Shown here piece by piece: positions 1,310-63,962 of a stretch of 64,000 nt of DNA. Made by a program: the position numbers and the translations under genes. The DNA is from Minisyncoccota bacterium. Its GTDB lineage: Bacteria; Patescibacteriota; Minisyncoccia; Phycocordibacterales; UBA6899. Location of the stretch: assembly GCA_035583355.1 (NCBI GenBank), contig DATEZQ010000008.1, positions 36,610 to 100,609 on the forward strand, written 5' to 3'. Numbering within the stretch: position 1 is the stretch's first letter; each line of letters starts with the position of its first letter. The notes beneath the pieces were generated by a model that was given only the letters and a program-made list of their open reading frames with translations, searched no databases and was not told the DNA's origin.

Positions 1310-1436
1310 TAGACTTTAGATTTTTGATGCAGGTTGCCTTGCTGGAGGCATGCGAATTTTAGCGAGCCGTATGCGGTATACGGTGAGCGAATCGCATGCT
1401 GAAGCATGGCAAGATGCGCAAAAATATGAAGTCTAA
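1310..1436. repeat. MITE-like intergenic hairpin element, copy A of 4
   Basis: Terminal inverted repeats tagacttTAGatttttg / caaaaatATGaagtcta. Core gatgcaggttgccttgctggaggc … gctgaagcatggcaagatgcgc around the central hairpin ccgtatgcggtatacgg. Homologous to the elements at 9136, 38942 and 42114. Confidence 0.6.
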
Positions 1437-3257
1437 TTAATCCATGTCGGAGCGAATCATTTTGACAAACACGTCTGGCGGGATATGAACGTTTGCTGAT
1501 TCCTGCATCTTCTTCTTTCCCTTCTTCTGCTTCTCCAAAAGCTTCATCTTTCGGGTGATGTCACCTCCATAGAGATAACCTGTCACATCCTTACGGAATG
1601 CAGAGAGCTCCTTCGATGAAACGATGCGTCCCATCGCACGTGCCTGAATCTTGATCTTAATCTGCTGGCGAGGAAGCACCTTGAAGAGCTTTTCCACTGC
1701 AGCATCTGCATCATCCTGCATACGACGACGTGAGACAACACGTGCAAAGGCGGGTACCGGGTCTCCCCCGACGAGCAAGTCCATGCGCACCACATCAGCG
1801 TCACGCATTCCCGCAATATCATACGAGAGCGATGCATAACCCGAGGACACCGACTTCAAACGATCGAAGAATCCACGCATAAGCTCACGTAGTGGCATCA
1901 CAAACTTTATCTGGAAACGATTGTCTCCAAAAATATCAGAATCCCCTGTTTCTGCTTCGTGCTCGAAGAGGAGCTGCGAAACGGGACCGACATAGTCAGG
2001 TGGTGTAATAATCGAACCATCAATCCAGGGCTCACGTACCTTCTCGATATCCGCATCATCAGGAAAGAGCGCAGCAGAGTACACAATCAGTGGCTCTTCC
2101 TTTTTGCGCATCTTCACCTCATAGGTAATCGACGGCGTCGTCACCACAAGTGCGAGCTGGTGCTCACGGCGCAGACGCTCAGTCACAATTTCCAGGTGAA
2201 GCATACCTAGACAACCACAACGGAATCCGCGACCAAGCGTACCCGATGCCTCTTCTTCATAGGTAAGCGCAGAATCTGAGAGCTGCAAGCGCTGCAATGC
2301 CTGACGGAGGACATCGAGGTCATCCTGGCTTTCAGGAAATACCGAGGCCCAAACAACCGGTCGAGGCTTTGCGTAACCCGCAAGCGCAGGAAGTGCTTGC
2401 TTCGTCAGCGTCACTGTATCACCAACACCCGCGACACCTGGTCGCTTGATGCCGGTCACGATATAGCCAATCTCTCCTGCATGAATTTCATCTGCGGGTG
2501 TTTGTGCGGGAAGGAAATGCCCAACTTCGATACCGAAGAACTTCTCCTTCGCTGCAATGAATGAAAGCTCAGCACCCTTTGTAATCTTTCCATCAAGTAC
2601 ACGCACAAAGAGAATGACACCGCGGTGGTTTGAGTATGCGAAGTCGAAGATAAGTGCACGCGCACCAGGCTTTCCGTGGAATTCCTCAGTTGGAGGTGGG
2701 ACACGATCGACAATGGCATCGAGGAGCTCCTGTACGCCAGCACCCGTCTTCCCCGAGACAGTCATGATCGATGAAGGATCACAATCAAGAAGCTGCACGA
2801 CTTCGTCAGTCACCTCAGCTACATCAGCGAGTGGGGAATCTATCTTTGAGAGCACAGGAATGATCGTGAGTCCTTGCTCACGCGCCATCGCAAGCACCGA
2901 GAGTGTCTGTGCCTGCACACCCTGTGTCGCGTCGACAAGCAAAATACAGCCCTCGACAGCTTTTTGTGCGCGAGAGACTTCATAGGAGAAATCGATATGC
3001 CCCGGTGTGTCGATGAGGTTCAAGATATAGTCCTCACCTCCCTTCTTATAGTGCATGCGCACCGGTGTCATCTTGATGGTGATGCCGCGCTCACGCTCCA
3101 GATCCATCGAATCGAGCACCTGTGCCTGCATCTCACGAGCACTCACGGTACGCGTGATTTCAAGCATGCGATCAGAAAGCGTCGACTTACCGTGGTCGAT
3201 GTGGGCGATAATACTGAAATTGCGGATATGCGACTTGGTCATACGTAATGAGGGCAT
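1437..3257 (-). CDS. lepA: Elongation factor 4 (LepA), translational GTPase
   Basis: N-terminal FSIIAHIDHGKSTLSDR G-domain, the DTPGHIDF motif, and full-length similarity to LepA along its 606 aa. Confidence 0.95.
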   Translation of the reverse strand: MPSLRMTKSHIRNFSIIAHIDHGKSTLSDRMLEITRTVSAREMQAQVLDSMDLERERGITIKMTPVRMHYKKGGEDYILNLIDTPGHIDFSYEVSRAQKAVEGCILLVDATQGVQAQTLSVLAMAREQGLTIIPVLSKIDSPLADVAEVTDEVVQLLDCDPSSIMTVSGKTGAGVQELLDAIVDRVPPPTEEFHGKPGARALIFDFAYSNHRGVILFVRVLDGKITKGAELSFIAAKEKFFGIEVGHFLPAQTPADEIHAGEIGYIVTGIKRPGVAGVGDTVTLTKQALPALAGYAKPRPVVWASVFPESQDDLDVLRQALQRLQLSDSALTYEEEASGTLGRGFRCGCLGMLHLEIVTERLRREHQLALVVTTPSITYEVKMRKKEEPLIVYSAALFPDDADIEKVREPWIDGSIITPPDYVGPVSQLLFEHEAETGDSDIFGDNRFQIKFVMPLRELMRGFFDRLKSVSSGYASLSYDIAGMRDADVVRMDLLVGGDPVPAFARVVSRRRMQDDADAAVEKLFKVLPRQQIKIKIQARAMGRIVSSKELSAFRKDVTGYLYGGDITRKMKLLEKQKKGKKKMQESANVHIPPDVFVKMIRSDMD

Positions 3258-3272
3258 ACTAGCATAAAATGC

Positions 3273-3397
3273 GGGAATGGGGTATGGGGAATAGGGTATG
3301 GGGAAAATTCATAAATAAAATTCGAGCACCTTCAGTGCTCAAATTTTGAATGTATTTTGAATTTTCCTATACCCTATTCCCTTTTTCCTATTTACCC
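3273..3397. repeat. G-rich heptad inverted-repeat element, copy E1
   Basis: gggaatggggtatggggaatagggtatgggg on the left; its inverse complement cctataccctattccctttttccta on the right. The central hairpin is gagcaccttcagtgctc. Lies between the lepA start and the murJ stop. Confidence 0.55.
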
Positions 3398-3491
3398 GTG
3401 AGCGACTCAGTGAAACTGAGGCGTGAGTTGAAGTGCGTGGCGGAGGCCACTCCTTATCGGACAAGACCGCCTGGCCCGCGATGCGGCGGTC

Positions 3492-8950: not shown

Positions 8951-9135
8951 ATTAGGAAAAGTATAGCACTTTTTAATGCAAATGTAGGGGTTAAGGGAAT
9001 AAGGGGATAAGTAAATTCACAACCTAGATACAAAATTTTAGATAAATTTTACAGCAAACTCTCTATTATAAAACTCAAGAATTTGGATGAAGTTTGCCTT
9101 ATTGGAGACAAGAGAACCTCTAAATTACTATGTTT

Positions 9136-9266
9136 TTGGCGAAGGATTTATGGATGCAGTTTGCCCTGCTGGAGCGAGGTGGCGAAGGTAGACGTATTCG
9201 ATATACGGCGACTGAGCCACCGGAGCGAAGCAGGGCAAAATGCGCCGTAAAGACTCGCCAAAAATT
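9136..9266. repeat. MITE-like intergenic hairpin element, copy B
   Basis: Terminal inverted repeats tttttggcgaag / (ac)tcgccaaaaa. Core gatgcagtttgccctgctggagcg … gaagcagggcaaaatgcgcc. Central hairpin cgtattcgatatacg. Confidence 0.6.
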
Positions 9267-9440
9267 TAAAAGGGAGAGCTAGCGCTCTCCCTTCCCACAG
9301 TTTCCACGATGTATTGGAACATGACTTGTTCCTTCCTCCATACTACGCCCTTACTCGGTTCTCGCAATTGTGGATAACGCACAATCACACACTTTGCATC
9401 TACTGTCGAACAATAGTAAGTAGCCTCCACGACAAATTGA

Positions 9441-13821: not shown

Positions 13822-13880
13822 GTATGCTTATTATACTATACTCTACTATAGTTTGTATACGTGCATGAATACGTAAATTC

Positions 13881-14030
13881 AGGGAATATGGGGATGAGGG
13901 AATTAGGGAATGTAGACATTTATACACGCAACAAAGAAGGCGAGGAGCATTATCGAACTAAAAAATCACATGCCAGATGCATGTGATTTTTCCTCAAAAT
14001 TCCCTTATCCCCTTATACCCTTATTCCCTG
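13881..14030. repeat. G-rich heptad inverted-repeat element, copy E2
   Basis: cagggaatatggggatgagggaattagggaatg on the left; aattcccttatccccttatacccttattccctg on the right. The internal hairpin is aaatcacatgccagatgcatgtgattt. Lies between the HK operon start and the gap stop. Confidence 0.55.
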
Positions 14031-14035
14031 TATTT

Positions 14036-18146: not shown

Positions 18147-18162
18147 GCAAATATTATAACAT

Positions 18163-18255
18163 GAAGAAGGCGAGGAGGAATGCAAAATACAGGGAGTAAG
18201 GGAATGAGGGAATAATGAAATACAAAAAACACGACATTTATAGCGTCGTGCTTTT
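18163..18255. repeat. G-rich heptad element, partial copy E3, with the gatB terminator
   Basis: aagaaggcgaggag + cagggagtaagggaatgagggaataatg, then the hairpin acacgacatttatagcgtcgtg with a T-run on the minus strand. Shares aagaaggcgaggag and gacatttata with copy E2. Confidence 0.5.
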
Positions 18256-18258
18256 TGT

Positions 18259-30492: not shown

Positions 30493-30690
30493 GCATAATG
30501 GCGCACCCTAAAGGGGCCCGCACCATTATGCTTATTAGGAACCCACGGCTCCTAACGCTTTCTTTGAATACAAAGAAAGCTGTGTTCCTCCACGGGGAAC
30601 CTCCCCGTTCCCCGGCCCCTTCGACACTCACCTTCTCGCTCGGAAGCGAGAAGGCACTAGCATGGTAATATTAGTGCTCGTTTTTCTAAA
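30493..30690 (+). repeat. Structured intergenic element R, copy 1 (possible small RNA; ends in a plus-strand terminator)
   Basis: gcgcaccctaaaggggcccgcacc … perfect hairpin gctttctttgaatacaaagaaagc … tcctccacggggaacctccccgttccccggccccttcgac … hairpin ccttctcgctcggaagcgagaagg … gcactagcatggtaatattagtgc + tcgttttt. The head and core segments recur at 31262-31545. Confidence 0.5.
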
Positions 30691-30721
30691 ATGAAAATGA
30701 TAAAGCAAATACGCTTATAAC

Positions 30722-30750
30722 AATAAAACCTGCAAATGCAGGTTTTTTGT
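30722..30750. terminator. Bidirectional rho-independent terminator
   Basis: aaaacctgcaaatgcaggtttttt. Confidence 0.6.
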
Positions 30751-30752
30751 GA

Positions 30753-31172
30753 TTATTCTGAAACAACAAGCGTACCCCACTGACCACCTGCTCTATGTCC
30801 AGGCTTTGAGCAGTAGTATACGAAACTTCCCACCTTATCTGCAGTAAACTCGACAACGACTTCTTGATTTAGAGGAAGTTCCTTCTGAACCCCAAATTCA
30901 TCAATAACGAAATCATGCATTCCCGCCGTATTTGTAATCTTTACACGGACAAGATCGCCCTTCTTTACAGACATCTCGTTGAGCGAGTACCATTTCCCCT
31001 TTGCGTCATAGTATGCGGTCATTGAAAATTCTTTGACTGGTGCAGTACTTGCGACACTCTCCTTTGCTTCAACAGGAGCAGGCGCTCCCGCTGTAGACCC
31101 ACCGCGCAATGCAAAGTATCCACCGATTGCGATAAGCACTAGAAGCGCGATGATAATGTTTCTTGAATTCAT
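30753..31172 (-). CDS. Type-1 copper (cupredoxin) protein, membrane anchored
   Basis: N-terminal TM/signal. Ligand set His (…AGMHDF…), then Cys-His-Gln in YYCSKPGHRAGGQWGTLVV: a stellacyanin-like Gln in place of the usual Met. Confidence 0.75.
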   Translation of the reverse strand: MNSRNIIIALLVLIAIGGYFALRGGSTAGAPAPVEAKESVASTAPVKEFSMTAYYDAKGKWYSLNEMSVKKGDLVRVKITNTAGMHDFVIDEFGVQKELPLNQEVVVEFTADKVGSFVYYCSKPGHRAGGQWGTLVVSE

Positions 31173-31261
31173 GTATTTTATTTTTATTGTTATTTTCCCA
31201 AAGTTTCGATTTCAATGATTTTTAGAACTTACATATTATACAGGAAAGATAGGAGAATCTC

Positions 31262-31545
31262 ACGTCGCGATGCGGCGCACCCTAAAGGGGCCCACACCGC
31301 CCTGCTCCTCGATTTCATTACATGAACGGTACACCTTTTGGATCTTTTATATCGAAGACTCACAAAAGTCCTCAAAAGGTCTTGCACTCTCGCTCCCATA
31401 AGCATGGGACCCATGAGCGAGAGCTCACCCACGGTTCTCGACGGAAACCCTTTCAGTCAAAAGGGGTTCCTGCTTTCCTACACGGGGAACCTCCCCGTTC
31501 CCCGACCCCCTCGACGTTCGAATCCCCGCGACTCCGCAATACAAA
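31262..31545 (+). repeat. Structured intergenic element R, copy 2
   Basis: Shares gcgcaccctaaaggggccc(a)cacc and tcct(a)cacggggaacctccccgttccccg(a)cccc(c)tcgac with copy 1. Several internal hairpins (ctctcgct…agcgagag; ccataagcatgg). Its 3' end runs into an inverted copy of the tRNA-Ser 3' half. Confidence 0.5.
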
Positions 31546-31600
31546 AAAAGAACAAGTACTCTTGCTCTTTTTTGTATTGCGGAGTCGCGGGGATTCGAAC
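31516..31600. repeat. Near-perfect ~40-bp-arm palindrome: inverted duplication of the tRNA-Ser 3' end plus ~20 nt of flank
   Basis: gttcgaatccccgcgactccgcaatacaaaaaaagaacaagtac | tcttgctcttttttgtattgcggagtcgcggggattcgaac. Confidence 0.7.
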
Positions 31601-31666
31601 CCCGGATGGCTGTTACACCATACTCACTTTCCAGGCGAGCGCACTAGACCACTATGCGACGACTCC
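31580..31666 (-). tRNA. tRNA-Ser (anticodon GGA), class II with a long variable arm
   Basis: Minus strand: GGAGTCG TC GCA TAGTGGTCTAG TGC G CTCGC CTGGAAA GTGAG [long variable arm ATGG…CCAT] CGGGG TTCGAAT CCCCG CGACTCC G. 7-bp acceptor stem, T-loop TTCGAAT, anticodon loop CU-GGA-AA. Confidence 0.85.
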
Positions 31667-38941: not shown

Positions 38942-39068
38942 AAACCGCTTATTCGGGATGAGATTGCCCTCGCTGGAGGCACGTGAACTCTAGTGAGCCG
39001 TATGGGTTATACGGTGAACGAGTCACGTGCTGAAGCGTGAGGGCAAGGTCGCCCGAATCAGCGGTTTA
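38942..39068. repeat. MITE-like intergenic hairpin element, copy C (between lemA and htpX)
   Basis: Terminal inverted repeats aaaccgcttattcggg / cccgaatcagcggttt. Core gatgagattgccctcgctggaggc … gctgaagcgtgagggcaaggtcgcc. Central hairpin ccgtatgggttatacgg. Confidence 0.6.
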
Positions 39069-53634: not shown

Positions 53635-54048
53635 CATTCAACTCGGGCATTTTCGGCGGCTGTCTTTTTGCCAGGACCGACCAGCGCTCGCCCACGTCTC
53701 ACATCAATATTTCTCGCAAAGCCTCAAAATATTGTGTGGTCTCGGGCCCGCCTCGCAGTCTCGAAGACTCGACATAGCCCCGGCTTACTCGCGGGAAAAT
53801 GCTATCGCATTTGCCTTCCCGCTCGTACTCCGAGTACCCTTGTACACTATCGTGCTGCGCGCAGGCCGTTGCTGGCAAAAATCCTAGCCGTTTCATTGTG
53901 TAAATTGAGGAGCCAGGAATGATGCTAAGTCCGAGCCGTTTCATAGGGCAGATTGAATGGCTTAGAATTTAGGTCTCATGACGCATGACCCATGACTTTA
54001 ATGCACAGGTAGTACCATAGACTGTACTAAGTATGCTATTATATAGTC

Positions 54049-57656: not shown

Positions 57657-57666
57657 AGGAAATCCA

Positions 57667-57752
57667 TGGGAATAAGGGGGATTCAAAACTCACCTATTAT
57701 CAGCATATCCGCAAAATCGCATTCTTCCCTTATCCCCTCATAACCTTATAAC
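57667..57752. repeat. G-rich heptad inverted-repeat element, copy E5 (lexA-dinB gap)
   Basis: gggaataagggggatt … cttcccttatcccctcataaccttataacc. Confidence 0.5.
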
Positions 57753-57766
57753 CTTGTATTCTCTCT

Positions 57767-58940: not shown

Positions 58941-61900
58941 TTAATTTGCTGATACACTGATCAAACCATTATGTGTGAGAGGCTTTGTTCCAAATGGGAC
59001 ATAAAGTCCGAAGTAGATATTATTGACTACCGGCGTCGTTGAGTTCGGCTTTGGGAAAGTCAAACCAAGCGTTGCCGTGCTTGTCGAAAGCGTCGTACAT
59101 AATGAGCAAGATGCAAAATCAAATGTCGAAGTTGCAACCTTTTCGTTATCAACAGTAATCGTACTATCTGTCGTCGTAAGATCTGAACCCGCAATATCGA
59201 TACCAAACTGCGCATTTCCCGTATTCTGGAGAGTAGCGGAAGGATTCGAAAACGCAGGAGTCGTACTTCCAATCTCCATACTACCGAAGTCCACCGCTCC
59301 CGTAATGAACGCAAGAGCCTTAAGCGTATTGAGTTCAGCATCGACACTCGCAGAATCGGAGACATTTGCCTGATTATGCACATGCACCGAAGCAGTCCAG
59401 ATATCACTTGCATATGTACCGACATCAGTTGGCTCTGCAAAGTATTGCAGATCTGCCTGACAAGAAATCGTACAAGATACACCCGCACATGCAGACAAGG
59501 CACACGAAGTCTTTAGAGGAGTATAACAATTGTTATCATCCGCCACACAAGACTCACCGAGACTCTTGCGATAAATCGTACCCGTTGCTACCGGTGAGAT
59601 ATCAGCATAACCGCTGTAATCAGTTACTGTACCAGTTGCCATCACCGTCGTTGTTCCACCTTCATTAAGAAGCGAAAGCGTTGGAGTGGTCCAGTTCCAG
59701 TTTGAAATATGCGGAGGATGTGAGACTGACGCCTCAGCAACCTTCGTATATGACACAAGACGATTTCCATTATTGGATACTCGGAAACAATATGTCGGCT
59801 GAATCGCACTAGGAGTGAATTGCAACGCATACTCTACTTCAGTGAAGTAATTCGCGGCGATCGCAAGTCCAGTCGTCTTATTCGACGGATCCTCCACAAT
59901 ACGTCCTGAGACAAAGTTCAATCCCTTCGGAGTAGAGAGGAGTGGTGTTGTACCATCACCATCAGCGAAACTTGTAGATGTAGCCATACACACCGCATCC
60001 GTTGAGCACGAGCTCGATAGAGGAACGGGAAGGTAATTTGCGTCACCAACCGACTCACAGTTCGATGCCCCACCCTTAATCGCATAATCGAGTTCGAGCT
60101 GCTGTCCAGAGAGTGGGGTTCCCGTGTTTCGGATTCCGAAACGTAGACGTACTTTCTCACCAAGCTGTGCTGCACCATATGCGGCATTTTCACTAGTGAT
60201 CCAAGTTGCTCCACCATGCTGCTGCGGCGCAAGCACTATCGTTGTCGGAGTGCCTGCAATATATGGAGTAGCGGTAACGTTATCCCAACCACCCTTCTGG
60301 TACCAGTATGAGAATCCAATCCCTGACCCAGGAGCATAGCTGTCTACTGCAGAAATACTTGCAACCTGCGTACCACTTGGGTCAAACAGTGTTGCATTAA
60401 TCGTTCCTCCTGACTGATAGATCCAATCAATACGCGCAGTATACCAACCCTGTGTGGAAAGTACGACATCCTGAGAAGAAACTTCTGAGGATACATTCGG
60501 TAAGAATCCATCCTTTGTCGCATCCTTCACAAGTCGCACATTCTTTGCGGCCTGCTGTGGTGAAACACAGAAGCCCCAGTTCGAACCACTCGTAGAGTTT
60601 GCTCCGAAGGTCAAACAGGTATCGTCATTTGATGAACCATCAATATAAATATTCTCTCTAATTGTCACACCCGCACCTACTGTCGTTCCGCGCGTAACGC
60701 CCGCAGAAAGATTTGCCATACCCAACGTTTGTCCTGTATCAGTCATTGAACGCAAATACTTGAGTCCAAGCTGTTCAATCGGCGAACGCGAAGCCATATC
60801 AAGTGTTCTAAATGATGCAGTGTCACCCGTCATACCTGAGAGACCAGATTCACCGTCAAAGAAATAGGTGAAGACCGAGGCACCCGAGGATGACGCTGCG
60901 GCACTCGCATTACCATAATAGACATAGACATCCGCACTTGACTGCGCAGCAAGCGTAGGTACCTTAACCCACACATTCGCACTCGCGGTCGTGTATGTTT
61001 CGATCCAGAATGGAATCGTCGTTGTACCATTGTTTGCAGTGAAACGAATATCTCGGTAATCTGCCTGCATTTGTGACTGATATGGTAAATTGACTTTCAC
61101 TGCAACATTCGTTGCAGCTGAGCTTGTATTGTTCACCACATGGACTCGCTGGCGATGCGTCCAACCCGAGGCTGCACCACCGTACCATTCACTATCCGGC
61201 ACCGCCTCCCCTCCGTCGTCATGACGCCACCTATAGTAACGTTGATCAACGAACTGACAGAGCGAATCATCCCATCTGAATGCTCCACAGGCGCCTGGTG
61301 AACCATCATTATCTGCGGACTCACCCGCAAGGTTCCCTACCGCACTACTGAAGTTCAACGCATTCGTTGAAGTACCGTTCAAGTAGGCGTTGACCCCTGA
61401 AGTGTGACCCGTATCAAGTGCGAAGCTGTTATTTGCAAGAATTGCGCCTGAGTTTGCATCAACAGTACTACCATCGATGTAAAGTATATTTCCCGTATCG
61501 ACTCCTGTTGCAAGATCTGCATTCTCAAGTGCCGTAATTACCGTATTTCCCGTAAGCTGCAGACCGTTCGCAGTAGTATTACGCATCTTGAAGTAACGAC
61601 CCTCGAAAGTTCCACTCGAGACAGAAAGACCATAAGTTCCTGACAGTGACTGTACTGAGGTTACTGCACCTGAGCTACCGACTATATGTAATTCTGTCCC
61701 ACTATTCCATGTCGCCGTGCTCCCTGGTGCGAATCGCACATTGACGGTTCGTGAAGCAATCGCAGTACCATCAAAATTCGTCGTCGCCGACCAATAATCA
61801 CTTCCGACATTGCGTACGTAATTACCATAAATATTGAGAGCTCCATTCACATTTGCGTAGTTCTGCGCATAGAGCGAAGCACCCCCTGCCGTAGTGACGC

Positions 61901-63962
61901 TTGTCGATGACGCATTCCAGACCGCTACCTGTGTATTTGCGCCAAGCTCAATGGCATTATATGCAGTCGCAGGTGCACTCTTTGCATTTATCGTGGAAGT
62001 ACCTGTTTTTTCAAGTCGCAGTGTACTTCCCGTCCAAGTTCCACCAATACTATTAGTAAAGAGATCCTGCACCACAAGCCTTGTTGAGGGCGACTGCACA
62101 AATGCATTCGCAGTCTTGAGCGTTAGTGACTTCGTTGCTGTTGCATTCGCCTCTATGGTAAATCCACCACCAGCACCGTCGACAATAAGATTCGTGAACG
62201 TAGAATTTCCTGGATTAATGAGCTTCCCTGTTGAGGTTGCGAACATGCGCACCGTCGACGTTGCTCCTGCGGTGAAACTACCTGCAATATTCTTGAATGT
62301 TCCACCAATTGCGAAGTCTGCTACAGGAAGAGTAAGGCTACCTGAATTAATGTAGACATCTCCTGTTGTTGTCGCATTCTGCACATTCGTCGCAAAGTCA
62401 CCATTGGCAATACGGAGATTTGCAAAGGCTGAACCACCAGGCACCAGGAGTCGGCTACCCGCTCCTGTCACCGAGACAGTACCGCCATTTGCAATAAATG
62501 CACCACCGATGTTCTGGAAGTCATTCCCGACTGCGAGTGTACCTGCAGGAAGCGTCGGCGTACCCGATGCAATAGTGAAGTTCCCCGTTGTTGTTGCACT
62601 ATCAAGGAAGCTCCACGCACCAGTTCCAATGAAAGTAAGATCCTTGAAACTACTTCCACTTGTGCGAATTTGCTTTCCCGTTGTAGTAGAGGTCATAAGG
62701 ACTGTACCACCGTTCGCATTGAACGTACCAAGATTACTGAATGTTCCACCAACCGCGAATGTACTTGCAGGTAGCGTTACTACTCCTGTAGTGATAATGA
62801 CATCACCCGTCGTAGTTGCAACACCCGCAATAGTCCACGAGCCCGCACCATTAAAGGTGAGATTCGTCAGTGTTGCCGGAGTAGCAGCTGTGAGTGAACG
62901 GCCTGCGACAGAGGAAGTGAACGTAAAGTTTCCTGCACCACCCGAGACAATCGCATTCGCACCCATCATGAGGTCACCGCCAACGGTATACACCTCTGCA
63001 CCACTAGTAATCCAAGTTGCACCTGCCCTGATTTCAATATCTCCTTCTATCGAAGAAGTATTGGTATTTCCCGGGACTGCGGCATTACCACCAGGCGCAT
63101 AAGTCTTTCCACTCCACACGATGAGCTTCGTATTCGTATCAAGAGTGAGCGCTCCTCCTGTTACTCGTGCAGGGATATTCGCATACTGATCTTTGTCATA
63201 CAAATCAATGCTTGTATTTGTAATAGCCCCCGTCTGCTCGTTTCGCACAATGACCGTATTTTCGTACATGTCATAATCCGCAATGTTTGTCATTGGATTA
63301 TAGGCATATGTCACTGCCTTCACACCACTACTTGATGTCGCGAAAAGTATGAGCGTATCAGCACCTGCGGGAAGGATATTCGGAATACTGAAACTACCGT
63401 CAGCTGCACTACATGCTGTACCCGGCATTGTTGTAGAAGCATTTGCTACACGAAGGAATATGTTTTGTGTTACTCCATTACATGCAGTTGATGGAGTAAC
63501 CCCATCACTCTGATAGAAATGACCAGAAATCGAGAGCTGTGCAGTTGAATCATCCCATACGAGATAACCAGGATTTCCTGCAGGGTCAACGTCATAGACC
63601 TCACCATCCCTTCCACCATAATGATTTACGAATCGCCAAGCAGACACGGTTGCACCTGTGGCGGTGATATTATTTCCGCCGGGAGCGATGAAGCCAAGTC
63701 GATACAGAATCTTCACAGGATTTGCAGTAATAACCGAAGCGGCAATGGTCATGAGTGACCCTGATCCGCTCGGATTCCTAAACACCACATCATCCATCTG
63801 ACTAACTTTCACTGAGCCCGTAAGTGCAGTACCGGTTGCATTCGCGTCGGAAATATCAAGATACTGCATTGTTGTCGAAGCGCCACCAATTGAAAGTCCA
63901 AAGGTTCCACTGAGCGCGCGAACTGTAGTTGAAGCAAGTGGATCACCAATCATTTCAATCAC
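58941..63962 (-). CDS. Very large secreted/surface protein with repetitive beta-helix-like segments (over 1670 aa; N-terminus may lie beyond the window end)
   Basis: Continuous ORF to the window edge. Thr/Gly/Ser/Asn/Ala-rich ~40-aa repeats (…TTGDVIITTGVVTLPASTFAVGGTFSNLGTFNANGGTV…). Cys-rich C-terminal region. Confidence 0.7.
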   Translation of the reverse strand: MIEMIGDPLASTTVRALSGTFGLSIGGASTTMQYLDISDANATGTALTGSVKVSQMDDVVFRNPSGSGSLMTIAASVITANPVKILYRLGFIAPGGNNITATGATVSAWRFVNHYGGRDGEVYDVDPAGNPGYLVWDDSTAQLSISGHFYQSDGVTPSTACNGVTQNIFLRVANASTTMPGTACSAADGSFSIPNILPAGADTLILFATSSSGVKAVTYAYNPMTNIADYDMYENTVIVRNEQTGAITNTSIDLYDKDQYANIPARVTGGALTLDTNTKLIVWSGKTYAPGGNAAVPGNTNTSSIEGDIEIRAGATWITSGAEVYTVGGDLMMGANAIVSGGAGNFTFTSSVAGRSLTAATPATLTNLTFNGAGSWTIAGVATTTGDVIITTGVVTLPASTFAVGGTFSNLGTFNANGGTVLMTSTTTGKQIRTSGSSFKDLTFIGTGAWSFLDSATTTGNFTIASGTPTLPAGTLAVGNDFQNIGGAFIANGGTVSVTGAGSRLLVPGGSAFANLRIANGDFATNVQNATTTGDVYINSGSLTLPVADFAIGGTFKNIAGSFTAGATSTVRMFATSTGKLINPGNSTFTNLIVDGAGGGFTIEANATATKSLTLKTANAFVQSPSTRLVVQDLFTNSIGGTWTGSTLRLEKTGTSTINAKSAPATAYNAIELGANTQVAVWNASSTSVTTAGGASLYAQNYANVNGALNIYGNYVRNVGSDYWSATTNFDGTAIASRTVNVRFAPGSTATWNSGTELHIVGSSGAVTSVQSLSGTYGLSVSSGTFEGRYFKMRNTTANGLQLTGNTVITALENADLATGVDTGNILYIDGSTVDANSGAILANNSFALDTGHTSGVNAYLNGTSTNALNFSSAVGNLAGESADNDGSPGACGAFRWDDSLCQFVDQRYYRWRHDDGGEAVPDSEWYGGAASGWTHRQRVHVVNNTSSAATNVAVKVNLPYQSQMQADYRDIRFTANNGTTTIPFWIETYTTASANVWVKVPTLAAQSSADVYVYYGNASAAASSSGASVFTYFFDGESGLSGMTGDTASFRTLDMASRSPIEQLGLKYLRSMTDTGQTLGMANLSAGVTRGTTVGAGVTIRENIYIDGSSNDDTCLTFGANSTSGSNWGFCVSPQQAAKNVRLVKDATKDGFLPNVSSEVSSQDVVLSTQGWYTARIDWIYQSGGTINATLFDPSGTQVASISAVDSYAPGSGIGFSYWYQKGGWDNVTATPYIAGTPTTIVLAPQQHGGATWITSENAAYGAAQLGEKVRLRFGIRNTGTPLSGQQLELDYAIKGGASNCESVGDANYLPVPLSSSCSTDAVCMATSTSFADGDGTTPLLSTPKGLNFVSGRIVEDPSNKTTGLAIAANYFTEVEYALQFTPSAIQPTYCFRVSNNGNRLVSYTKVAEASVSHPPHISNWNWTTPTLSLLNEGGTTTVMATGTVTDYSGYADISPVATGTIYRKSLGESCVADDNNCYTPLKTSCALSACAGVSCTISCQADLQYFAEPTDVGTYASDIWTASVHVHNQANVSDSASVDAELNTLKALAFITGAVDFGSMEIGSTTPAFSNPSATLQNTGNAQFGIDIAGSDLTTTDSTITVDNEKVATSTFDFASCSLCTTLSTSTATLGLTFPKPNSTTPVVNNIYFGLYVPFGTKPLTHNGLISVSAN

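Follow-up and report, generated by a model that had tools for sequence, protein, structure and literature searches.

Tandem arrays in the intergenic gaps

The window, meaning the whole 64,000-nt stretch of DNA that was analyzed, comes from the metagenome-assembled genome of an uncultured bacterium of the Paceibacterota, in the candidate phyla radiation (CPR). It matches a Logan assembly of SRR5133178, and by protein its closest named relatives are Yonathbacteria, Lloydbacteria, and Minisyncoccota. The window is approximately 90% coding when maximal open reading frames are counted, and all of its short tandem arrays lie in the non-coding 10%. Of the gaps measuring 100 nt or more, 21 in all, six contain arrays, and the genes next to these arrays are housekeeping genes. 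The gaps run from murJ to lepA (E1), from the GAPDH gene to an HK-HK-REC operon (E2), from gatB to a 648-aa ORF (E3), upstream of a DUF192 gene (E4), from a LexA-like gene to dinB (E5), and from the RNase J gene to a gene for a periplasmic binding protein (Peripla_BP_6; the sixth site). Four to five arrays of at least three units are present in the window versus 0.01 expected from Markov shuffles, and GGGNATNNGGGNAT has eight matches in the window versus 0.05 expected.

E1 to E5 had been proposed, in a sequence-only reading of the same DNA, as a second intergenic family of inverted G-rich and C-rich arrays located in terminator and promoter gaps and enriched outside genes. All five sites carry arrays as described, all are non-coding, and the family is a genuine one; its intergenic enrichment holds within the available DNA, where every array in the window is non-coding. 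The sixth site was absent from that list and belongs to the same class with another unit type. The individual features are as follows.

3273 to 3307, + strand: lepA-side arm of E1, five G-rich 7-nt units (GGGAATG GGGTATG GGGAATA GGGTATG GGG)
3310 to 3348, − strand: inner hairpin of E1 (GAGCAC...GTGCTC) with a T-run, from folding; intrinsic-terminator-like, after murJ and between the arms
3362 to 3392, + strand: distal arm of E1, degenerate, C-rich on this strand and hence the G-rich 5′ arm in gene sense
8980 to 9016, + strand: E4, three 8-nt units in a single array whose sense strand is C-rich
13875 to 13912, + strand: arm of E2 beside the HK-HK-REC operon, AAATTCAGGG and then four 8-nt units (13881 to 13912)
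13915 to 13947, + strand: interior of E2, with the 10-mer GACATTTATA (13915 to 13924) and the 14-mer AAGAAGGCGAGGAG (13934 to 13947)
13960 to 13991, − strand: inner hairpin of E2 with A- and T-runs, from folding; predicted intrinsic terminator of the GAPDH gene
13998 to 14035, + strand: GAPDH-side arm of E2, four 8-nt units (13998 to 14030), C-rich on this strand and the G-rich 5′ arm in gene sense
18164 to 18221, + strand: E3, the 14-mer (18164 to 18177) and a single array of three 8-nt units (18185 to 18221)
18222 to 18258, − strand: predicted intrinsic terminator hairpin of gatB, from the terminator scan, adjoining the E3 array
53975 to 53997, + strand: sixth site, three CATGAC(N) heptads 5′ of the promoter of the Peripla_BP_6 gene (ATG 54049), from TRF and inspection
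57660 to 57684, + strand: G-rich arm of E5, two units directly past the stop codon of the LexA-like gene
57720 to 57761, + strand: C-rich arm of E5, degenerate, CCCTTAT CCCCTCAT AACCTTAT AACCTTGT

Of these five, only E1 is built of the heptads that had been described for the whole family, whereas the units of E2 to E5 are 8 nt long. The hairpin that had been placed between the arms was found at E1 and E2, where it resembles a terminator, but at E3 it lies beside a single array and at E5 there is none.

At every site the C-rich version of the array lies on the coding strand immediately 5′ of the next gene, and in complete elements the G-rich version starts a few bases past the stop codon of the previous gene. 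In E1, the arm at 3273 to 3307 is the C-rich 3′ arm on the gene-sense (−) strand and ends approximately 30 nt before the lepA ATG, the true start probably being the ATG at 3242; its inverse arm is 31 nt long and 77% complementary, with 55 nt separating the two. The GAPDH-side arm of E2 begins approximately 2 nt past the GAPDH stop codon, so that in gene sense the element reads from the stop codon through AAATACAGGG and four units to the hairpin with its T-run. A spacer of approximately 50 nt follows, then four C-rich units ending in CCCTGAATTT (the arm at 13875 to 13912), approximately 44 nt, and the −10 box. E3 is C-rich in gene sense and has the gatB terminator on one side and, on the other, the leaderless promoter of the 648-aa ORF (ATG 18148). 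Its overlap with this ORF at 18190 is only apparent because a TTG ORF was over-extended, the called gene starting at 18148. E4 has no partner arm and no fold; 18 nt separate its end from TATACT, the −10-like box of the DUF192 gene. The C-rich arm of E5 stops 6 nt short of the dinB ATG. Just 5′ of the CATGAC heptads of the sixth site is a 30-nt direct repeat (53879 to 53908 and 53927 to 53956, 80% identical), and another heptad-like array (CTGATTA/CTGTTTA) is located at 28 to 57.

Nearly every gene in the window has a TATAAT- or TATACT-like box 5 to 9 nt before its ATG and no Shine-Dalgarno sequence (for example, the start codons at 18148, 8950, and 13821), and the same is true of the related sequences L001 and L210. 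This suggests that genes in this Paceibacterota lineage are leaderless with one promoter each; no paper on leaderless transcription in this lineage was found in the literature. The G-rich arms have the look of a Shine-Dalgarno sequence, a reading that was rejected since the genes here have none. Between the array and the −10 box the distance ranges from approximately 9 to approximately 44 nt across sites.

Two of the elements fold into long hairpins, E1 at −56.7 kcal/mol (z = −9.2) and E2 at −61.9 kcal/mol (z = −6.6), with the arms pairing around the inner hairpin and T-run. E5 has no significant fold (z = −0.4), and the half-elements (the E3 array, E4, and 53975 to 53997) do not fold. CATGACT arrays were considered as self-complementary hairpins and rejected, their folds being weak or not significant. 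The inner hairpins fit predicted intrinsic terminators, with a stable hairpin and a T-run 3′ of a stop codon (by scan for E3, by folding for E1 and E2). The outer stem is followed by only 3 to 4 U, a weak terminator tail, and termination does not require the arms, since arrays are lacking at most terminators of the window. Except for a tRNA, no Rfam family reached its gathering threshold in the window; E1 and E2 gave sub-threshold matches to generic long-hairpin miRNA precursor models.

E2 (13915 to 13947) and E3 (18164 to 18242) share the exact 14-mer and 10-mer in circularly permuted order. That the two copies share these motifs had been noticed earlier, and in the window they occur nowhere else. 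They are also missing from the orthologous elements of relatives, which suggests a recent exchange between the two elements, 4.2 kb apart.

Conservation and turnover in related species

We compared the window with the syntenic loci of four related species (L122, L124, L127, and L128; GAPDH 84 to 87% identical). Further loci were retrieved via DinB (L209, L210, and L212) and via LepA (L213 and L214). L124 and L125 are the same sequence, so that pair holds no strain-level information on variable repeat number, and L213 is not a close strain, its LepA being 99% identical but its DNA only 77 to 86% identical.

The spacer between the GAPDH and HK genes kept its order in all five species: stop codon, purine- or G-rich arm, terminator, C-rich arm, promoter. 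All five spacers fold, with z from −4.0 to −13.3. The units are GGGNATAA 8-mers in the window, GGGTAT(G) 7-mers in L122, mixed in L124, and mostly AGGTNAT with some AGGGAAT 7-mers in L127 and L128, and within each element both arms are built of one unit type. By contrast with this kept order, neutral sequence around E2 is already saturated or deleted across species. The spacer between the terminator and the C-rich arm cannot be aligned across species and is absent in L127 and L128.

The RNAalifold consensus for E2 has 43 pairs, 17 of them with a compensatory change (nine in the arms and eight in the terminator), a count that comes from five orthologues only and from low-complexity arms whose alignment is uncertain. 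The terminator hairpin is retained in 5 of 5 orthologues, with a compensatory change in 8 of its 11 pairs. Paired cells amount to 78.8% versus 68.6 ± 1.8% in shuffles, none of 500 reaching the observed value, and drop to 38 to 49% when the partners are slid. Mismatches between arms, classed in the sense RNA, comprise 6 sense-wobble changes, 15 antisense-wobble changes, and 30 transversions. Changes compatible with a G.U pair in the sense RNA are therefore not in excess (6 versus 15), and the pairing of the arms may be kept at the DNA level or by a copying mechanism rather than by selection on RNA. The identity of arms within an element compared to that between species did not discriminate, the arms being of low complexity.

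Orthologues of E1 retain arms around the murJ terminator with differing units, and hairpins orthologous to its inner hairpin are present in L122 and L213. In L213 there are five perfect GGGAATA/GGGTATA units, and although the C-rich arm is split by a GC-rich element, the spacer still folds (z = −9.2). The arms of L214 are of two types, (GTGGATA)n and (GATTTAT)n, one nested in the other, with a fold of z = −4.8, and L122 has a G-rich arm and terminator only. E3 is a full two-arm element flanking the gatB terminator in L124 and L127, a C-rich arm only in the window and L122, and CATGACT heptads in L128, and is absent from the gatB spacer of L214. The units ahead of DUF192 are of the CCCCTTAT type in the window but CATGACT, five to six of them, in L122 and L127. 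At the sixth site, upstream of the binding-protein gene, the copy number of the CATGACT array is 0 to 1 in L210, 2 in L209, 3 in the window, and at least 8 in L212, resembling a variable-number tandem repeat between genomes. Single arrays and half-elements hold the same positions in relatives.

The E1 and E2 sites are filled in all relatives compared (four to five species). E5 is a gain of approximately 100 nt relative to L209 and L212, where the lexA-dinB gap is 8 nt; compared to these two, its junction is not a clean insertion and has no clear target-site duplication. Judging from this comparison, new copies do arise. In L210 (9575 to 10000), a gene of the bAvd/23S_rRNA_IVP family is inserted between lexA and dinB, with inverted heptad arrays, (AGTCATG)3 and (CATGACT)3, on its two sides. 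The DUF2341 surface-type protein encoded beside dinB varies greatly in size, with 1673 aa in the window (58941 to 63962), 1292 aa in L209 (5604 to 9482), and approximately 6290 aa in both L210 (11184 onwards) and L212 (11181 onwards).

Also conserved in L122, L124, L127, and L214 is a stretch of approximately 170 nt (about 9257 to 9430, − strand) between a REC-only response-regulator gene and DUF192. A strong terminator (9295 to 9268) closes the stretch, which looks like an unannotated small RNA gene; it had no Rfam match at E ≤ 0.1 (one sub-threshold match, E = 0.25).

Similar arrays and known repeat systems

A scan of GTDB genome contigs with AGGGNNTNAGGGNATNAGGGNAT gave, among the matches listed, perfect octamer microsatellites from many phyla but not the source lineage. 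Perfect G3-type octamer arrays are widespread in bacteria (L002 to L121; for example, L015, L024, L098, L114, and L117). Both flanks could be examined for 110 of the listed G-octamer arrays, and within 300 nt an inverted C-rich partner lies 3′ of 18 of them but 5′ of none. This 18:0 polarity among the matches listed has a one-sided probability of approximately 4e-6. Paired arrays occur, for example, in Mesorhizobium, Phyllobacterium, Brucella tritici, a Ruminococcaceae MAG, Planctomycetes, Acidobacteria, and Elusimicrobia. Fifty-nine of the arrays among the matches listed are intergenic; 43 of these lie just past the stop codon of a co-oriented gene (median 37 nt), and convergent gene pairs are the commonest setting (25 cases).

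A metagenome scan with GAPDH found relatives only at ≤60% identity. In 0.76 Mb of independent CPR-like contigs, inverted pairs of heptad arrays are common, with quite different units. The polarity of these other unit types is mixed (4 versus 3), limiting the G-first rule to G3-type arms. On one such contig (L152, 1870 to 1975), TTTAGGG-type (plant-telomere-like) heptads follow a tRNA-like 3′ end, and after a short spacer comes an inverted CCCTA-type array.

Several known systems have features in common with these elements. REP sequences are GC-rich palindromes of 20 to 40 nt with a conserved GTAG head and are linked to RAYT transposases. Like REP/BIME elements, the elements described here are intergenic imperfect palindromes that lie mostly past stop codons, between convergent or co-directional genes, in many copies per genome, and REP/BIME elements have been proposed to affect the 3′ ends of transcripts, termination, and supercoiling. 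They differ in having A/T-interrupted tandem units of 7 to 8 nt, no conserved sequence, and a separate enclosed terminator; a GTAG-type head is absent from the arms, and no RAYT gene was seen among 28 window proteins near the elements. MITEs of the Correia/NEMIS type are 100 to 160 nt long, with inverted ends, and form long hairpins that are cut by RNase III, in intergenic positions near promoters and terminators. Their size, inverted ends, intergenic location, and long-hairpin folding are similar, but the copies of a MITE match closely over their whole length and carry target-site duplications, whereas here the interiors differ and no clear duplication was seen. Bidirectional intrinsic terminators have a symmetry of A-run, hairpin, and T-run, and the outer ends AAATNCAGGG...CCCTGNATTT repeat this logic one level out. 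Canonical terminator stems measure 5 to 14 bp, however, versus 35 to 45 bp of tandem units with an interior of 60 to 120 nt here.

The unit of the cyanobacterial repeat STRR1 is CCCCAAT, which resembles the CCCCATA/CCCTATT units found here. Membership in the cyanobacterial STRR families (CCCCAAT, TTGGTCA, and CAACAGT, from heterocystous hosts) was rejected, as the organism belongs to the CPR, the units differ, and HIP1 is not enriched. A cyanobacterial origin of the DNA was rejected too, since its protein matches are to the CPR and HIP1 shows no enrichment. STRR and the TAACTGA heptamers of Beggiatoaceae and cyanobacteria are intergenic tandem arrays of two to six or more units (PMC4679880). 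The heptamer arrays are often located just 5′ of start codons, are phylogenetically scattered and of unknown function, and only one inverted set was found among 170 in a Beggiatoa genome (PMC4679880). These are direct repeats with one fixed unit per family, whereas the present arrays have no set unit and repeatedly form inverted pairs around a terminator.

The HOOF-print loci of Brucella (AGGGCAGT VNTR loci) are tandem 8-nt units with a G3 core, present at several loci in hypervariable number, and are described as typing markers (PMC7589603 and PMC1183211). A keyword search of these two papers found no mention of an inverted partner, of a terminator context, or of polarity. Our matches include a locus in Brucella tritici (L117) where, as in E2, a CCC-type inverted partner comes after a (AGGGAATA)n array, and the layout in Mesorhizobium and Phyllobacterium is the same, with a G-octamer array and inverted partner. 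The difference is that these belong to another phylum and use another unit. None of the REP/BIME, HOOF-print, STRR/TAACTGA, or MITE systems combines a free unit sequence, concerted inverted arms, and a central terminator.

Possible roles and origins of the arrays

It is well supported that, in this Paceibacterota lineage, tandem arrays of 7- to 8-nt units sit between the intrinsic terminator ending one gene and the leaderless promoter that serves the following gene. The observed position, architecture, fold, covariation, turnover, and polarity are best explained if the elements are fast-evolving, slippage-built palindromes that extend terminators, to which we give a probability of approximately 45%. 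We infer from these observations a function in termination or insulation, and slippage together with template switching as the generating mechanism. Arrays would be built and rebuilt as units are gained, lost, and replaced through slippage, with both arms of an element staying alike, and the arms would lengthen the terminator into an imperfect palindrome of 35 to 45 bp. RNA polymerase would normally halt at the inner hairpin, leaving the G-rich arm alone to be transcribed, as 3′ UTR. On read-through, the C-rich arm would zip onto the G-rich arm to form a long stem with CAGGG/CCCUG at its closing end and AUUU(U) after it; this stem might serve as a back-up terminator or as a target for a double-strand RNase. 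At the DNA level, the palindrome might act as a cruciform-prone insulator, and either route would separate closely packed, individually promoted genes. With leaderless genes that each have their own −10 box, read-through would be useless and insulation is plausible. Single arms would represent decayed or nascent halves.

The polarity of the arms may have a related cause. C-rich, G-poor untranslated RNA is a loading site for Rho, and a transcribed 5′ arm would have to avoid being such RNA, which fits the G-first order. No rho gene was found by tblastn with E. coli Rho in approximately 1 Mb of CPR DNA, a sample too small to be informative.

Transcription signals have hardly been studied in CPR bacteria, whose genomes are tiny and encode few regulators; no description of elements such as these was found in the literature, in CPR or elsewhere. 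In the window, structured elements of 100 to 150 nt occupy about a quarter of the larger intergenic gaps, and their being kept among leaderless, individually promoted genes points to a need for insulating neighboring transcription units. They are concrete candidates for CPR terminators and insulators. Furthermore, the arrangement of arm, terminator, and arm is conserved while the primary sequence turns over by unit slippage, and searches based on sequence families miss such elements.

The arrays may instead be a mutational by-product with no selected function, in which slippage generates them in dispensable DNA between terminator and promoter, and intrastrand template switching at the terminator hairpin copies an array across and keeps the arms alike. 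Such template switching is known from E. coli genetics as quasipalindrome correction. Unit type and copy number vary freely at fixed sites, and arrays are missing from some orthologous gaps (the gatB spacer of L214 and the lexA-dinB gaps of L209 and L212), both in favor of this reading. A purely mutational origin stays a serious rival because there is no G.U bias, most terminators are armless, and half-elements persist. On the other hand, the architecture of E2 is kept in 5 of 5 species despite saturated or deleted neutral neighbors, a genome with approximately 90% coding DNA would not be expected to keep 100 to 150 nt that are dispensable, and the strict G-first order of G3-type pairs (18:0 among the matches listed) demands a strand-specific constraint. 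On balance we regard this origin as rather doubtful.

The same 18:0 polarity suggests a general strand-specific constraint at gene ends. It is possible, although unlikely, that the elements belong to a phylum-spanning class of polar palindromes with tandem 7- to 8-nt arms that act as bidirectional transcription insulators at gene ends. In such a class the G-rich arm would come first on either strand, slippage and template switching would regenerate the arms, and structure would be conserved while sequence is free. The HOOF-print octamers of Brucella would be members, which may explain the location of some typing VNTRs.

A further candidate is a DNA-level binding array or promoter-upstream element, with the C-rich repeats ahead of leaderless promoters serving as contact sites for RNA polymerase or a general DNA-binding protein and their number tuning expression. 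A C-rich or CATGAC-type array lies on the coding strand right before the promoter at every site, single arrays keep their position in relatives, and the units have a loose ATNACCY/ATNCCCT form in common. Against it, units are not conserved between orthologues (such as the two types upstream of DUF192), the distance to the −10 box is variable, a period of 7 to 8 bp places successive units on different helix faces, and the would-be target genes are unrelated housekeeping genes. We consider this quite improbable. The more specific proposal of the sequence-only reading, an array bound by a regulator, did not fare better: units differ between sites and orthologues (GGGNATAA, GGGTAT, AGGTNAT, CATGACT, and GTGGATA), and because neither the unit nor the −10 distance is conserved, a sequence-specific regulator array appears unlikely.

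It is very unlikely that the elements are G-quadruplex or i-motif switches, with G3 tracts forming G4 structures in DNA or 3′ UTR RNA that modulate transcription or RNA decay. Canonical motifs (four tracts of at least three G with loops of 1 to 7 nt) number three in 64 kb versus 0.38 expected per shuffle, and these predicted motifs (3273 to 3296, 13882 to 13908, and 14002 to 14028) all lie in the arms of E1 and E2; L122 has them in both E2 arms. The element is thus G4-prone here, as had been suggested, but the property is not kept in L124, L127, and L128 (three of the five E2 orthologues), whose arms have no four-tract motif, those of L127 and L128 being mostly AGGTNAT. Other members are built of CATGACT, GTGGATA, or GATTTAT units, and the complementary arm would compete for pairing. 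As a conserved property, G4 formation is excluded by the sequences of the orthologues.

Least probable is a mobile element with the arms as terminal inverted repeats mobilized in trans: the arms (31 to 38 nt, 77 to 84% complementary) do have the form of such repeats, with a conserved outer end (AAATNYAGGG, four matches in the window versus 0.84 expected), the C-rich arms of E5 and E2 are 87% alike over 30 nt, E5 is a gain relative to empty sites, and the bAvd gene of L210 lies between inverted arrays, but the interiors of E1, E2, and E5 are unrelated, a repeat search links arms only, no target-site duplication is visible at the unclean E5 junction, E1 and E2 are at orthologous positions in four to five species, unit length differs between copies in one genome, and a scan of 28 window proteins encoded close to the elements revealed no transposase domain. 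The small non-autonomous repeat that had been suggested is therefore reduced to a shared style of arm and a single gain (E5), with E2 in place in five species, and a classical MITE is unlikely on the sequence comparisons.

Two other features of the window may reflect mobility. A GC-rich hairpin element, representing the first repeat family, lies at 3395 to 3490 between the murJ stop codon and E1. In L213 (2985 to 3090) it is inverted and lies inside the C-rich arm of E1, and both sequences share the junction GTCG(C/T)TCAC joined to GGGTA. Two further copies in the window (1337 to 1408 and 38968 to 39039) are 82% alike. This element looks mobile and may target heptad arrays. The 3′ end of the tRNA-Ser(GGA) gene (31579 to 31666, − strand), together with downstream bases, recurs after the gene as a perfect inverted copy of 33 nt (31516 to 31548 and 31568 to 31600), and a 46-nt direct repeat (30580 to 30625 and 31470 to 31515, 89% identical) brackets a cupredoxin-like ORF (30753 to 31172). 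The region from 30580 to 31666 may be the remnant of an integration at tRNA-Ser.
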